Numbered from the stretch's first letter, positions 35,481 through 38,391 are shown. The stretch is 64,000 bases of DNA from Candidatus Nomurabacteria bacterium RIFCSPHIGHO2_12_FULL_42_19 (GCA_001786955.1 MFUM01000004.1:4457-68456), one strand, 5' to 3'. Numbers and translations are program-made. The notes: generated from the sequence alone by a model not told the origin.

Positions 35481-35513
35481 TTATATATCAATCTCCGCCA
35501 GCTTGGCGTTGGA
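35481..35513 (-). pseudogene. displaced duplicate of the gyrB 3' end ([10 protein letters not shown]-stop)
   Basis: The minus strand tcc aac gcc aag ctg gcg gag att gat ata taa encodes the same 10 residues as the true gyrB end (36292-36324). A 14-nt core is identical. Confidence 0.7.
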
Positions 35514-35957
35514 TTATTTTGTTGCATCGTAATCTTCAATATTCTCTTCAATAAAAGAATTTATTATATTCATAATATTATGTCTTTCTTCTGGTTTGCT
35601 TTCAGCAACTTTACAGGCAAATTGATAGATATCTTGGTTGGGAGTAGAGAGCCATTTGCCATTTTGAACAAGAAAAAATAGCAGTGTTGTAACTGCAATT
35701 CTTTTATTGCCGTTTTGAAAGGGGTGATTTTTTACCATCAAATAAAAGAGTATTGCTGATTTCCCGATAAGGCCTTCGTATAAACTTTTTCTATCAAAAG
35801 TTTGAAATGGTGTTGCAATACAACTTTCCAATTTATCTGGAAAACGCGTTTCAAAGTCAGGAATTGGTTCATTCCATTCCATAAATTCCTTGGCGAGTTG
35901 AAAAGCGATATATTCCACATCTGCCAGATTAATACGTTTAATCGTTTGACGTGCCAT
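35514..35957 (-). CDS. doc: Doc (death-on-curing, Fic-fold) toxin
   Basis: HPFQNGNKRIAV matches the Fic/Doc motif HxFx(D/N)(A/G)NKR. Confidence 0.85.
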   Translation of the reverse strand: MARQTIKRINLADVEYIAFQLAKEFMEWNEPIPDFETRFPDKLESCIATPFQTFDRKSLYEGLIGKSAILFYLMVKNHPFQNGNKRIAVTTLLFFLVQNGKWLSTPNQDIYQFACKVAESKPEERHNIMNIINSFIEENIEDYDATK

Positions 35958-35967
35958 AAAATTTTAA

Positions 35968-36252
35968 TTATTCTTTTCCGAGTTTTCGCAATGCGGGACC
36001 ATATTTCTTTACCACACGCTTAACAACATCTTCTATATCCTTTTTGCGACGATCTGGCACAAAAACGCCTAAAATGGTCTCATATTCTTCTCTTGGAATA
36101 ATATAATTTCTTCCAATTTTTTCAGCATGTATTTGGCCTGACCGAATCTTCTTAAAAATAGCAACTCTGGAAACACCAAGAAGTTTCGCTATTTCCGGCG
36201 CAGAAAAGTACTTTTTGCTCTCTCCTTCAAAAATATGCTTATTTTTCAACAT
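35968..36252 (-). CDS. excisionase-type HTH DNA-binding protein, putative antitoxin of Doc
   Basis: SAPEIAKLLGVSRVAIFKKIRSGQIHAEKIG helix-turn-helix. Lies 10 nt upstream of doc. Confidence 0.65.
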   Translation of the reverse strand: MLKNKHIFEGESKKYFSAPEIAKLLGVSRVAIFKKIRSGQIHAEKIGRNYIIPREEYETILGVFVPDRRKKDIEDVVKRVVKKYGPALRKLGKE

Positions 36253-36290
36253 ATATATAGGTTAACATATGTTAACTCATAAATCAATGG
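36253..36290 (-). promoter_or_regulatory. putative cassette promoter with a palindromic operator
   Basis: TTGATT (36287-36282)-17-TAACCT (36264-36259), 6 nt before the ATG. The perfect 16-bp palindrome GTTAACATATGTTAAC (36261-36276) overlaps the -10. Confidence 0.35.
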
Positions 36291-36291
36291 G

Positions 36292-38391
36292 CTAGATATC
36301 AATCTCCGCTAATTTTGCATTTGATTGGATGAAAGATTTGCGGGGAGGGACTTCGGAGCCCATGAGGATGTCAAAGATTTTATTCGCTTCCTCTGCATCA
36401 GAAATATCCACGCGCTTGAGAACGCGATGTGCGGGATCCATCGTCGTCTCCCAGAGTTCTTCCGGATTCATTTCACCGAGACCTTTGAAACGCTGGATAT
36501 GTATTTTGTTAGGTTTAGCCCCGACGTTCTCCTCAGGAGAAGTCGGAGTCCCGACCCCTTCAGGCGTCGGGAGTTCTTCCACTTCCTGTATTTCACTCAC
36601 GTCCGCGTTCTTGCCGACAATTTTTATTTTTTCATTATCGGTGTATGCGTAAGAAATCTCTTTCCCCTTTTTTATTTTATAGAGTGGTGGCTGGGCAATA
36701 TAAATATACCCGGCATCAATCACTTGCCTGAAATATCTGTAGAAAAGAGTCAGAAGCAATGTACGGATATGTGAACCGTCCACGTCGGCATCGGTCGCAA
36801 TAATTATTTTATGATAACGAATTTTCTCCAGGTCAAAAGTATCCCCGATAGATGTGCCCATCGCAATAACTAAAGATTTAACTTCTTTGGAAGCAAGCAT
36901 CTTATCTATGCGCGCGCGCTCCACATTTAAAATTTTTCCGCGTAGTGGCAATATCGCCTGGGTGCGGCGGTCCCGTCCTTGTTTTGCCGAACCGCCTGCC
37001 GAGTCTCCTTCCACTAAGAATAATTCCGATTCTGAAGCATTTTTGCTTTGGCAGTCTGCCAATTTTCCGGGCAAAGTCATCCCCTCAAGCGCACCCTTGC
37101 GAAGCACTGAATCCTTGGCTGCCTTGGCCGCTTTGCGGGCCTTTAGGGCCAGAATTGACTTGTTTATTATAGATTTGGCGTCATCCGGGTTTTCTTCCAG
37201 AAAGTTCGCGAATCCCTCGCCGAATACGGTCGCCACGGCGCCCTGAGCTTCCATGCTTCCCAATTTTCCCTTGGTCTGCCCTTCAAATTGTATCTCGCGA
37301 AGCTTGACCGAAATAACTACCGTCAAACCTTCCAGGACATCTTCGCCCGTAAATCCGCCTTCGGACTCTTTCATCATTTCATTTTTCTTACAGTAGGTGT
37401 TGAGCGTTCTGGTAAGCGCCGTCTTAAAACCGGTTACATGCGTCCCGCCCTCCTGGGTGAAAATATTGTTGGCGAAAGGGAAAATCCTGTCCACGATATC
37501 ATCCACATACTGCAGGGCTATCTCTACTCCCACGCCATCCAGTTCTCTTTCAATATAAAAAATATTATTCTGGACCGGTTTGACAAATTTATTGTAATAC
37601 TTTACCAGAGAAATCAGTCCGCCTTCAAAATAGAAAGCAACAGAGGGAAGCTCAAGCCCAAGTTCGCGGAAATAAAATACATCCTCGTCATTGAGCCCCT
37701 TTTTATCGTCCCAGCCGCGGGCGTCAATTATTAAAATCTTCAATCCTTTCACCAAATAGGCTTGTTGGCGAATGTGGCTGATGACCGTGTTCCAGTCAAA
37801 TACAATCTTACCAAAAATTTCCTGGTCGGGCTCAAAAGTAATTATGGTTCCGTGCATCTTTGATGCCCCGTTTTTTTTTACAGCGAACTTTTTCTTGCCT
37901 TTAGAATATTCTTGAATATATTTTCCGCCATCCCTATGCACTTCCGCCTTGCAATAGATGGAAAGCGCGTTTACCACCGATGCGCCGACTCCGTGTAAGC
38001 CTCCGGAAACTTTATACCCGCTATTTTCGCCGCCGAATTTTCCTCCGGCATGCAGCGTCGTCATCACGGTTTCCAGCGCGGAAACTTTTGTTTTTTTATG
38101 CATATCCACCGGAACGCCCCGGCCGTTGTCCGCCACGCGAATACGGTTGCCCGGAAGAAAAACAATTTCAATGTCATTGCAAAAACCTCCCATCGCCTCA
38201 TCGCGGGAATTGTCAAAAATCTCCCATATTAAATGATGAAGCCCTTCCGGCCCTGTAGTGCCAATATACATGCCTGGACGGCGCCTGACGGGCTCCAGGC
38301 CCTCTAGAACGGATATGTCAGAGGCATCATAATGGTGCCCTTTTTCGGCACCTTTTTTTGCTCCTTTTTCGTCTTTTCCTCCCTTTGCCAT
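36292..38391 (-). CDS. gyrB: DNA gyrase subunit B
   Basis: GHKL ATPase, TOPRIM ([18 protein letters not shown]) and the C-terminal [21 protein letters not shown] motif. Confidence 0.97.
36519..36573. repeat. family F nested hairpin element, in frame in gyrB
   Basis: CCCCGACGttCTCCTCAGGAGAAGTCGGAGTCCCGACCCcttcaggCGTCGGGAG. gyrB peptide [19 protein letters not shown]. Confidence 0.7.

Follow-up and report, generated by a model that had tools for sequence, protein, structure and literature searches.

How the gyrB gene of an uncultivated bacterium, Candidatus Nomurabacteria bacterium RIFCSPHIGHO2_12_FULL_42_19, came to have two 3' ends, one completing the gene and one stranded behind a small toxin–antitoxin pair, is the question raised by this locus. 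An initial annotation proposed that the pair had inserted by site-specific integration, with the incoming element supplying a surrogate terminus for gyrB and a 14-nt run shared by the two ends acting as the attachment (att) crossover site. We analyzed the 64,000-nt stretch containing the locus (hereafter the window) together with the corresponding junctions of related lineages, including GyrB orthologues of 69–91% identity in 80 species-representative genomes; no GyrB of identity between 91% and 100% was found among the sampled genomes.

Organization of the gyrB–thrS junction

The gyrB gene (36292–38391, minus strand; 699 aa) matches all four GyrB Pfam domains and is followed on the same strand by an HTH antitoxin gene, a Doc toxin gene, and the second tail, R. 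Beyond R lies orf70, a 70-codon orphan reading frame (35218–35430, minus strand) with no Pfam or NCBIfam match, and then thrS (threonyl-tRNA synthetase; 33433–35208, plus strand), which is convergent with gyrB.

The HTH gene (35968–36252, minus strand) codes for a 94-aa putative antitoxin and autorepressor with an N-terminal excisionase-type helix-turn-helix (HTH_17; PF12728, 1e-07), which also matches the TIGR01764 'excise' domain with 33.6 bits. It ends 10 nt before doc (35514–35957, minus strand), a putative Doc-family toxin gene of 147 codons with the motif HPFQNGNKR. The Doc-type catalytic motif is H-x-F-x-[DN]-[AG]-N-K-R, with lysine where AMPylating Fic proteins have glycine. Scores above the curated cut-offs for Pfam Fic/DOC PF02661 (42.6 bits, cut-off 24; 1.1e-10) and NCBIfam TIGR01550 DOC_P1 (56.9 bits, cut-off 38.65), the catalytic motif and the paired upstream gene place the protein in the Doc family; the solved family member 9vzc is a weak match, with its HCFYNANKR aligning with HPFQNGNKR. 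Of 80 metagenome loci with a Doc homologue, 79 have an HTH homologue directly 5' of it, and ORF and domain searches bear out the annotation that the block contains only these two genes and no recombinase.

The promoter and presumptive operator region of the pair (36253–36291, minus strand) has a TTGATT hexamer and a palindrome and ends at the ATG of the HTH gene. The palindrome, GTTAACATATGTTAAC (36261–36276), is unique in the window, and the stretch ttgatttatgaGTTAACATATGTTAACctatatatATG of this region is kept in at least 16 lineages. By family membership, the HTH protein is predicted to bind GTTAACATATGTTAAC, which would overlap the module's own promoter and serve as antitoxin operator, and to neutralize Doc, itself a probable Fic-fold kinase of the P1 Doc type that would block translation through phosphorylation of EF-Tu. 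The palindrome is better read in this way than as a dif site: insertion by Xer at a replication terminus was rejected, with no GC-skew switch at the junction and a 6-4-6 palindrome that is not the dif layout. The module resembles P1 Phd-Doc in its pair of small genes, co-oriented and antitoxin first, in its Doc-type Fic motif and in the palindrome of its promoter region; it differs in that the partner is of the HTH_17 excisionase type rather than Phd/YefM, and in being chromosomal and fixed beside gyrB in one clade.

Every Doc that is at least 75% identical and whose contig reaches the flanks is located between gyrB and thrS, with remoter HTH–Doc pairs elsewhere, and we read the cassette as a resident rather than a recent arrival. 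No near-identical copy was found in other species or in viral contigs, and a phage or plasmid origin was set aside, as no relative was found in viral contigs. The cassette has a GC3 of 0.24–0.28, versus 0.38–0.50 for its neighbors; thrS is not compositionally odd. Cassette proteins are 0.74–0.89 identical between lineages, the same range as the GyrB C-terminus, and codon identity runs only slightly higher for the cassette (0.56–0.67, against 0.49–0.54); co-divergence with GyrB, considered as an indicator of descent, was dropped, as the protein identities all fall within the narrow span of ~0.74–0.89, with r = 0.30, and are uninformative on vertical versus horizontal descent. The pair is best read as an ordinary type II toxin–antitoxin module and an old resident of the gyrB–thrS junction.

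The remaining reading frame, orf70, has no homologue besides itself among 5.8 billion proteins. The annotation noted a 25-nt segment shared with the 3' region of doc and suggested remnants of earlier cassettes; a 24-nt similarity is real (21 of 24 bases equal, 'SKPEER') but marginal (pairwise BLASTP E = 0.004; shuffle P ~0.008), and against other doc genes the orf70 segment gives blastn E values of 0.08–1. A Doc-family profile search of every frame of 35209–35513 returned no significant match. Given the marginal match, the negative profile search and the lack of a homologue, orf70 is not taken as the relic of an earlier cassette. A promoter-like site facing orf70 (35463–35491, minus strand), recognized by consensus match only (10 of 12 positions), has its –35 hexamer TTGATA within R and its –10 hexamer TATGAT 17 nt downstream.

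The two gyrB tails

The working tail, F (36292–36324, minus strand), consists of the last ten codons and stop of gyrB, tca aat gca aaa tta gcg gag att gat atc tag; R (35481–35513, minus strand), which is non-coding where it lies, reads tcc aac gcc aag ctg gcg gag att gat ata taa and would encode the same ten residues and a stop. The TAA stop of doc directly abuts R, which is therefore in frame with doc, and both the coordinates and the codons of the duplication are as first annotated. A repeat search recovers F and R as a direct repeat of 34 nt with 79% identity. They differ at 8 of 33 bases and all eight differences are synonymous, an outcome seen in none of 200,000 trials in which eight random substitutions had to keep the peptide and stop (P < 5e-6). 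The tails of unrelated clade members differ by a mean of 6.0 bases, so that the eight between F and R are typical of such pairs. The exclusively synonymous differences mean that the tails derive from two different gyrB lineages: R is a displaced gyrB terminus of foreign (xenologous) origin and not an in-place duplication.

The sister lineages on the GyrB neighbor-joining tree indicate which copy is the resident one. F is two bases off the tails of L178/L179 and three off that of L176, and R is eight and seven bases off the same tails; the tails nearest to R are those of L008, L011 and L102. Judged from these 33 nt, F looks native and not brought by incoming DNA, and the surrogate-terminus claim runs against this polarity. 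A mosaic within gyrB was sought by sliding-window comparison of nearest relatives among 22 relatives and rejected, there being no clear breakpoint and no switch at the 3' end. The joint between the doc stop and R has at most 2–4 nt of shared bases (AA / AATC), with a donor that is not among the sampled lineages, and the sequences following the two tails have no significant colinearity (P ~0.2).

An assembly artefact does not account for the arrangement. The collection has the exact doc protein indexed in 62 blocks, and gene order was identical in 24 of 24 contigs read, which come from separate metagenome assemblies; the occupied state was likewise present in 24 of 24 contigs read for each exact protein of this species (Doc, GyrB and orf70).

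The 14-nt run ATATCAATCTCCGC occurs exactly twice in the window, at the annotated positions 36296–36309 and 35485–35498 (the downstream copy, GCGGAGATTGATAT on the minus gene strand), where shuffled sequence gives an expectation of 0.05. The same 14-mer is present in 10 of 34 distinct clade tails encoding the same ten residues, and 25% of random pairs of clade tails are identical in register over a stretch of 14 nt or more. A run of this length is so common in random tail pairs that it is not evidence of an att core, the identity being no greater than that of unrelated targets, and the role assigned to it as crossover site is not supported. A crossover within the tail is possible, as one of several models that yield the same structure.

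Junctions in related lineages

The empty sites anticipated by the annotation exist: the stop codons of gyrB and thrS abut or overlap in L005, L177 and L180/L181 (GyrB 91%), and in L010, L016, L021 and L025. The cassette is absent from all of the sister lineages, and a native cassette thus needs several losses. At least 12 other Nomurabacteria lineages have an orthologous HTH–Doc pair (Doc at least 75% identical) at the gyrB–thrS junction. In none of these does a tail remnant follow doc, and between the gyrB stop and the start codon of the HTH gene they have anywhere from 39 to 946 nt. The only other cassette lineage with a remnant is L102, where it is located after an extra HAD gene and has two mismatches in 24 bases to that lineage's own tail, of which one is non-synonymous. 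HTH–Doc is therefore not an element found elsewhere bracketed by the same repeats, and the proposed tie between cassette and repeat does not hold.

Tail remnants are also found where the cassette is lacking. Eight cassette-less lineages (L011, L013, L014, L022, L073, L049, L069 and L083) have a duplicated tail, an observation that the annotation had named as damaging to its own proposal, and it is damaging in part; these duplicates flank other cargo or only ~50 nt. Among 90 lineages and 155 kb scanned, there are 13 loci (~10 lineages) with same-strand tail remnants versus a single opposite-strand match, and the cargo they flank varies: a Cas2-like PaaX protein, a TrpR-like protein, Ham1 with an IS200-type Y1, HTH–Doc–HAD, or ~50 nt only. 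As in the window, the differences are all synonymous in L069 (10 of 33) and L083 (6 of 24). The polarity is reversed in L069/L049, where the remnant is 5–6 bases off the tails of the nearest relatives and the working tail 11 off. The remnants are never longer than ~33 nt, and in-register comparison has their left edges scattered from codon –10 to –6 with none further upstream, which refutes a single left edge at codon –10 for all; their restriction to the final 33 nt at most may nonetheless be the mark of a specific site. A 33-nt hairpin insert with TCCAAC repeats is present only in the L049 and L069 loci. AGY serine codons were considered as a shared foreign 3'-end marker in L049, L069 and L083 and dropped, since AGY is found in many remnant-free lineages.

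No recombinase was found within or close to the ~90 related junctions. Integrases, resolvases and transposases of the usual kinds are absent from the top Pfam families of 80 junction ORFs and from 20 individually scanned ORFs, including the largest ORFs of the biggest junctions, and the block in the window, having only the HTH and Doc ORFs, lacks the integrase of a site-specific element. No motif, hairpin or inverted repeat is shared by the cargo-side flanks of the remnants. Y1 transposase genes are present in three junctions; insertion of the IS200/IS605 type (target TTGAT in the tail) was rejected, as it leaves the 33-nt duplication unexplained and the block in the window has no Y1.

The ancestry of thrS is discordant with that of the gyrB side. 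GyrB, L32, NusB–NUDIX and RNase III all point to L005, L176–L181 and L009, and the GyrB sisters are still the closest relatives for L32, NusB–NUDIX and RNase III. For ThrS these sister lineages (GyrB 90–91%) are only 53–63% identical, and the best relatives are L021 (73%), L029 and L043 (both 68%), whose GyrB proteins are only 84, 75 and 71% identical, respectively. Across the clade, ThrS is 45–73% identical versus 69–91% for GyrB, and it occurs in short and long forms. The discordance could be older than the event that left R.

Origin of the displaced tail

The reading that we favor, with belief and doubt about evenly balanced, is that R is a scar left when related bacteria exchanged DNA at a gyrB–thrS hot spot where the HTH–Doc pair has long been resident. 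In such a hot spot, small genes would be gained, lost and swapped among lineages, and R would be the 3' end of another lineage's gyrB, left when DNA of a related bacterium recombined into the junction. One end of the incoming DNA would have joined by ordinary homologous recombination and the other illegitimately, at or near the homology border, inside the last ~33 nt of gyrB. Joining of this sort is known as homology-facilitated illegitimate recombination (Prudhomme 2002, PMC122325; de Vries & Wackernagel 2002, PMC122324), or 3'-end displacement. In the version likeliest here, F and the toxin–antitoxin pair would both be native, with the incoming block comprising the thrS side: the last 33 nt of the donor gyrB and a foreign thrS, perhaps with orf70. 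The addictive pair would have been lost in a clean double crossover through gyrB, and the sole survivor may have been a recombinant that kept the pair together with a stray foreign tail. R would have persisted by being short and diverged, as recombination of a longer or identical direct repeat with the real tail would remove the DNA between. The direction and mechanics of the event, this survivorship argument and the toxin–antitoxin biochemistry are what we infer; the foreign origin of one tail, the native look of F, the discordant thrS, the recurrence of remnants and the lack of a nearby recombinase are what we observe. Several properties expected of such a scar are present, including a duplicate diverged under coding constraint (eight of eight differences synonymous, and likewise in L069 and L083), a flank, ThrS, of other ancestry than the anchor gene, and recurrence with unrelated cargo, variable junctions near the homology border, and either polarity. 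Counting against it are the unsampled donor, the orphan status of orf70, the odd GC3 of the cassette and the cassette-free sisters; moreover, a native 5' part in F with a foreign one in R is also what a circular cassette entering by crossover within the 14-nt run would give.

That crossover is a possible explanation, albeit one that we hold to be on the improbable side. A small circular HTH–Doc cassette with the gyrB tail of a former host would have entered by a single crossover inside the 14-nt run, through a trans-acting site-specific recombinase or by short-homology Campbell-type recombination, such that F would consist of the native 5' part, core, and cassette 3' part and R of the cassette 5' part, core, and native 3' part. 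Direct repeats do bracket exactly the HTH and Doc block, the nearest relatives do have empty sites, and this model accommodates a native-looking 5' part in F and a foreign-looking one in R as well as the scar reading does. The cassette tail it predicts (the first 29 nt of R and the last 4 nt of F) is three bases off that of L098, the lineage with the closest Doc (88%), the cassette is AT-rich relative to its neighbors and patchy on the GyrB tree, and L022 has a TrpR-like gene between two copies of a perfect 19-nt repeat containing the 14-nt run, a gene that recurs with its remnant but with different flanks in L014 and L073. The shared run, however, is expected in a quarter (25%) of random tail pairs, and in-register identity of remnant and working tail, by eye, is only ~8 nt in L069 and ~5 nt in L083. 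The pair is in place with no remnant after doc in the 12 or more lineages with 39–946 nt spacers, none of the ~90 junctions has a recombinase at or near it, the cargo-side flanks have no common motif or hairpin, and no near-identical cassette is present in other species or viral contigs. A circular intermediate in which the doc stop is already joined to gyrB-tail codon –10 is also needed, and that junction is in no sampled genome; the circle would there read doc stop, tcc aac gcc aag ctg gcggagattgatat, c tag ccca ttgattt. More doubtful still is the wider proposal that the last ~33 nt of gyrB are a genuine attachment site in Nomurabacteria/Paceibacterota, capturing small circular cassettes in the manner of an integron; each cassette would bear one gyrB-tail-like site, HTH–Doc plus remnant and TrpR-like plus remnant being two of them, and the recombinase would be encoded elsewhere in the host or replaced by a recombinase-independent short-homology route. 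Of the original site-specific integration proposal, the foreign displaced tail, the empty sites and the block free of recombinase genes stand; the att core and the tie between cassette and repeat are not supported.

We regard as decidedly unlikely an event of the e14/icd type in which a donor gyrB 3' end arrived with HTH–Doc, anchored by homologous recombination within gyrB and joined just 5' of the resident tail, making F foreign and R the original host terminus. Such polarity is seen in L069/L049, the AT-rich codons of F resemble cassette codon usage, and e14 is similarly flanked by icd and icdC (PMC13626634; Hill 1989, PMC210168); the cassette also lies 39–946 nt from the gyrB stop in every donor candidate, so near that a donor fragment with the cassette would also bear a gyrB tail. 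The native-looking copy in the window is F (2–3 differences) and not R (7–8), however, and the nearest relative does not switch toward the 3' end of gyrB in the sliding-window comparison with 22 relatives. Barely credible is tandem duplication of the gyrB end in place followed by drift, or an assembly artefact: slippage can make short direct repeats, and the L102 remnant, two of 24 bases off its own tail with one non-synonymous change, has such an appearance, but a non-coding copy drifting neutrally would not have gained eight differences that are all synonymous, and the structure is assembled alike in many independent metagenomes, so that both are effectively refuted for the window.

Relationship to known systems and implications

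Scars of this type are known from Rhs loci and from the T6SS effector–immunity arrays of Vibrio cholerae, where they arise by C-terminal displacement (PMC5361080). On the scar reading, the gyrB junctions share with them a conserved gene upstream as homologous anchor, illegitimate joining of a relative's DNA at the homology border, an old or extra 3' fragment retained downstream as an orphan, and recurrence at a single locus, with cargo that changes and without a dedicated recombinase. They differ in that the piece displaced is not a variable toxin domain but a synonymous gene tail, that of an essential housekeeping gene, and in that the remnants are tiny (33 nt or less) and of both polarities. 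The integrative element e14, like phage 21, targets the 3' end of icd, brings a replacement end and leaves icdC, with mostly synonymous differences between icd and the displaced icdC that flank it (PMC13626634; Hill et al. 1989, PMC210168). The gyrB locus is alike in the gene end duplicated on both sides, the mainly synonymous differences and the intact gene, but e14 is a 15-kb element that encodes both an integrase and an excisionase, possesses a defined att core, and excises upon SOS induction, whereas the block here is 0.8 kb without a recombinase, the proposed core is of chance-level identity, and the working tail is native-looking. As with integron cassettes, small promoterless-to-single-gene units gather at one site with the newest nearest the anchor, toxin–antitoxin cassettes are common, and every unit ends in a repeat-like site; unlike integrons, the junctions examined have neither an IntI-type integrase nor attC-like hairpins, with at most one remnant per locus and variable edges.

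The host is an uncultivated candidate-phylum bacterium, and the mechanism is accordingly read from sequence. To our knowledge, transformation and recombination in these bacteria are not yet open to study in culture, and their means of gene exchange are nearly unknown. Should the tail be a true attachment site, the less likely reading, the end of an essential gene would here serve as a gene-capture platform of a new kind. The Doc pair is kept beside gyrB in many lineages, and its addictive nature may select against clean replacement of the junction, a site at which thrS is repeatedly replaced. If the scar reading is right, the mechanism would be an ordinary one and the marker useful: short, synonymously diverged tail remnants would be datable footprints of DNA exchange, and the exchange they mark would span quite distant uncultivated lineages, with GyrB proteins 70–90% identical.

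The gyrB-thrS junction

The gyrB gene (36292–38391, leftwards) ends in tca aat gca aaa tta gcg gag att gat atc tag and is followed by 39 nt containing the palindrome GTTAACATATGTTAAC (36261–36276), which is unique in the window. Downstream on the same strand are a 94-codon ORF (35968–36252) coding for an excisionase-type HTH protein (PF12728, TIGR01764) and a 147-codon ORF (35514–35957) coding for a Doc-family toxin (PF02661; TIGR01550 with 56.9 bits against a cut-off of 38.65) with the motif HPFQNGNKR, together forming a putative toxin-antitoxin (TA) cassette. A second copy of the gyrB tail (35481–35513, leftwards), tcc aac gcc aag ctg gcg gag att gat ata taa, begins immediately 3' of the doc TAA codon and encodes the same ten residues and stop as the gyrB end; we refer to it as the remnant, and to the gyrB end at 36292–36324 as the working tail. 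The 14-mer ATATCAATCTCCGC is present at only two sites in the window (35485–35498 and 36296–36309; 0.05 expected). A 70-codon leftwards ORF (orf70, 35218–35430) lies between the remnant and thrS (33433–35208). A reading of the minus strand over 34900–36700 and an ORF listing bear out all of the sequence statements in the initial annotation. That annotation also raised the prospect of an assembly artefact, which does not hold, since the gene order is identical in every contig read (24 per query, from separate metagenomes); Doc, GyrB, and orf70, searched as exact proteins, are indexed in 47–69 blocks of a public assembly collection.

One 4-kb contig (Ga0209518_1017360, locus L093) is 99.9% identical to the window across gyrB, the HTH gene, doc, orf70, and the 3' part of thrS, and at 2839–4075 (window ~34647 and leftward) changes within thrS to sequence ~70–76% identical to other lineages, with locus L027 the best match. 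Either the strain behind it has a mosaic thrS, or the contig is a chimera produced in metagenome assembly.

The putative promoter/operator stretch of the cassette (36253–36291, and its equivalent in loci L085–L110) is nearly invariant although it is non-coding, and the synonymous sites of these lineages are near saturation. A leaderless mRNA is suggested by the position of the HTH start codon, right after an AT-rich box, and by its lack of a ribosome-binding site. By eye, a putative TA promoter reads TTGATT, 17 nt of spacer, and TAACCT, and ends 6 nt short of the ATG, a placement that likewise points to a leaderless transcript; a promoter scan gave a different, weak site. Judging from family membership, the HTH protein would bind the palindrome overlapping its own promoter and neutralise Doc through its C-terminal part, and free Doc, a predicted Fic-fold kinase with an NKR motif, would phosphorylate EF-Tu and arrest translation; the Doc protein of phage P1 phosphorylates EF-Tu and halts translation. 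Nothing ties Doc to gyrase in function, and their adjacency appears to be positional. We note that the remnant supplies a -35-like TTGATA with TATGAT 17 nt downstream (35463–35491, leftwards; 10/12 consensus matches), aimed at the orphan orf70 and forming the best promoter-like match in the region. TTGATA is present in many gyrB tails of the clade (Ile as ATT, GAT, then an A-initial Ile codon), and gyrB ends containing it could seed a promoter for whatever sits 3'.

Junctions in related genomes

Scanning one genome per species yielded 80 related Nomurabacteria/Paceibacterota loci with GyrB proteins 69–91% identical to that of the window; none with an identity between 91% and 100% was found among 5.8 billion proteins. 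The gyrB and thrS genes are convergent in about 60 of the 80 loci, with a gap of -4 to ~4,800 nt and a varied cargo, including genes coding for TrpR-like, sortase, DUF4406, uracil-DNA glycosylase, Ham1, Cas2-like PaaX, and IS200-type Y1 proteins, among others. Neither the top Pfam families of 80 junction ORFs nor 20 ORFs scanned singly included an integrase or resolvase family. The nearest relatives mostly have empty junctions in which the gyrB stop abuts or overlaps the thrS stop (L005, L177, L180/L181), so that the unoccupied site sought in related genomes exists; among further relatives, L176 has a Maf gene there and nothing else, and in L178/L179 the gap measures 287 nt.

Several junctions have other features. 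The Y1 transposase-like proteins (PF01797) are encoded in three gyrB-thrS junctions, and in L013 the Y1 ORF (8559–9233) ends ~30 nt before a decayed tail remnant. In L077, gggcctatagttcagcggt is located ~30 nt past the gyrB stop (2233) and looks like the start of a tRNA gene. The gyrB genes of L091/L092/L094 (locus 266–3655; protein P0194) code for proteins of 1,125–1,129 aa in which the GyrB and Toprim domains are separated by an intein (PF14890, Intein_splicing).

Distribution of the HTH-Doc cassette

Homologues of Doc are numerous in database searches. Those at least 75% identical, on contigs that reach the flanks, are all encoded directly 3' of gyrB and upstream of thrS, in at least 12 further lineages (L085–L109), and those of 72% identity or less belong to HTH-Doc pairs in unrelated contexts; on this distribution, the cassette is best described as a resident of the gyrB-thrS junction. 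The conserved block extends from ttgatttatgaGTTAACATATGTTAACctatatatATG through the doc stop, with 39–946 nt between the gyrB stop and the HTH start codon, and the sequence past the doc stop differs lineage by lineage. None of the at least 12 other cassette lineages has a tail remnant directly after doc, and only L102 among the cassette relatives has one at all, sitting after an extra HAD-hydrolase gene. From one lineage to another the cassette proteins have identities of 0.74–0.89, about equal to those of the C-terminal 220 residues of GyrB, and the ThrS proteins of cassette lineages are only ~50% identical. We found no near-identical cassette in another species and none in viral contigs. In a neighbour-joining tree of GyrB, built without support values, six Doc-bearing tips are scattered, each beside a Doc-less tip, so several losses or several gains are needed, always at the one locus.

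Two tails and a thrS gene of different ancestry

Between working tail and remnant there are 8 mismatches in 33 positions, all of them synonymous; none of 200,000 random trials with eight substitutions preserved both peptide and stop. This argues that the second tail is not a non-coding copy drifting in place, and that one of the two evolved as a working gyrB end in a different lineage and was then imported horizontally. Eight differences are typical of two unrelated clade members, as unrelated tail pairs differ on average at 6.0 positions and 21% of pairs at eight or more. The working tail differs from those of the sister lineages by GyrB at two bases (L178/L179) and three (L176), and the remnant at eight and seven, respectively, so the working tail is to all appearance inherited and the remnant imported, at least in the five proximal codons where the tails differ. 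The 14-nt run, taken in the initial annotation as the core of an att site, is not borne out as evidence of one. The exact 14-mer is present in 10 of 34 distinct tails encoding the ten-residue end, an identical in-register run of at least 14 nt is shared by 25% of random tail pairs, and the run is simply the portion that varies least in a strongly conserved tail.

The thrS gene has an ancestry unlike that of its neighbours. Its product is closest to those of L021 (73%), L029, and L043 (both 68%), lineages whose GyrB proteins are 84, 75, and 71% identical, respectively. The lineages that are closest by GyrB (90–91%), L32 (84–91%), NusB-NUDIX (77–82%), and RNase III (85–88%) have ThrS proteins only 53–63% identical, which indicates a separate history for thrS with breakpoints on both sides. 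Across the clade (loci L005–L181) ThrS is unusually heterogeneous, with short (~415–427 aa, lacking the N-terminal domains) and long (~585–600 aa) forms, and this suggests that thrS has been repeatedly replaced horizontally.

Tail remnants across the clade

Local alignment of the DNA 3' of gyrB in 90 distinct lineages (155 kb), with 93 tail variants as queries, gave matches on the gyrB strand at 13 loci and just one match, at threshold level, on the opposite strand. Convincing remnants are always at the far end of an inserted block, adjoining the thrS-side genes, and their left edges, when compared in register, vary from codon -10 to codon -6 with none further upstream. The cargo between working tail and remnant is HTH-Doc in the window, HTH-Doc-HAD in L102, a Cas2-like PaaX protein gene in L011, genes for Cas2-like PaaX, Ham1, and Y1 proteins in L013, and a TrpR-like gene in L014, L022, and L073; it is only ~50 nt in L049 and L069 and ~57 nt in L083. 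The differences between tails in L069 (10/33) and L083 (6/24) are all synonymous. In L069 and L049 the remnant has 5–6 differences from the tails of the nearest relatives and the working tail 11, whereas L083 and the window have the opposite polarity, the working tail resembling the relatives and the remnant not. Tail remnants recur across the clade and are not bound to the cassette.

The reverse-strand TrpR-like genes (PF01371), with an upstream palindrome gTATATCATATATGATA, are at L014 7577–8036, L022 2249–2710, and L073 7728–8225, and the stretch from the operator-like palindrome to the remnant is homologous in all three. The remnant follows the gene by ~20–40 nt in these three lineages, which represent two GyrB clades and have different genes on either side; that of L014 is decayed. 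More distant lineages, too, often have TrpR-like genes between gyrB and thrS. The DNA between the tails of L069 (7104–7152) and L049 (4533–4583) includes a conserved segment, CCCCGTAGTCAGCTTTGCTGTACT, that could form a partial hairpin and was found in these two loci only. It is bracketed by two TCCAAC hexamers ~39 nt apart, and in L049 ttc atc caa, possibly another piece of gyrB, comes before it; the insert could be a tiny insertion with target duplication or a set of stacked remnants. In L102 (5058–5092), the HAD-hydrolase encoded after doc ends in DFIESN (FIEKY or FILKF in its orthologues), and its final two codons and stop look as if taken over from the neighbouring remnant (tca aac tag), a small gene-remnant fusion.

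Origin of the remnant

A site-specific cassette with a 14-nt att core, as initially proposed, is not supported, the core being an identity at chance level, no recombinase having been found at the junctions, and the cassette mostly lacking a remnant; a broader version of the idea retains some probability. The observed mix of native and foreign sequence in the two tails would also be expected had a circular cassette integrated by crossing over within the 14-nt run, and the tail such a cassette would have carried (the first 29 nt of the remnant and the last 4 nt of the working tail) is three bases from that of L098, the lineage with the closest Doc. The AT-richness of the cassette relative to its neighbours (GC3 0.24–0.28 against 0.38–0.50), its absence from sister lineages, and the unit-like behaviour of the TrpR-like gene and its remnant also fit. 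We nonetheless regard it as rather unlikely: it needs a recombinase, and none was found at the junctions, the joint of the required circular intermediate is seen in no sampled genome, and the many cassette-bearing lineages without a remnant are at odds with it. Alternatively, the working tail could have arrived with the cassette, as in e14 and icd, where the working tail comes with the element (PMC13626634). This seems to fit L069 and L049, where the working tail is unlike, and the remnant like, those of the nearest relatives, but is disfavoured in the window, where the working tail looks native.

We favour inter-lineage recombination at a hot spot over a dedicated integrative element, because one tail is foreign with a polarity that varies between events, the remnants have differing edges that all fall at the border of homology, the events have cargo unrelated to one another, and no recombinase turned up at the junctions. 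The pattern is that of the orphaned 3' ends at T6SS and Rhs loci, for which homology-facilitated illegitimate recombination was put forward (PMC5361080, citing Prudhomme 2002, de Vries & Wackernagel 2002). For the window we favour an imported thrS side, made up of a donor gyrB's final 33 nt, the orf70 region, and thrS. Homology would have anchored this DNA on the thrS/rpmF side, and its other end would have been joined illegitimately right after the doc stop; as the gyrB-thrS order is conserved, any clade fragment carrying thrS would end in a gyrB tail. Had a double crossover run cleanly through gyrB, the TA pair would have been deleted, and loss of an addictive module would be counter-selected. 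Direct repeats that are identical or longer than ~30 nt would recombine and delete the insert, such that only short, diverged remnants would persist. The observation is more general than the initial annotation could see. The favoured mechanism is already known and the instance is new, affecting the tail of an essential gene, in candidate-phylum bacteria, and recurring in about one lineage in nine.
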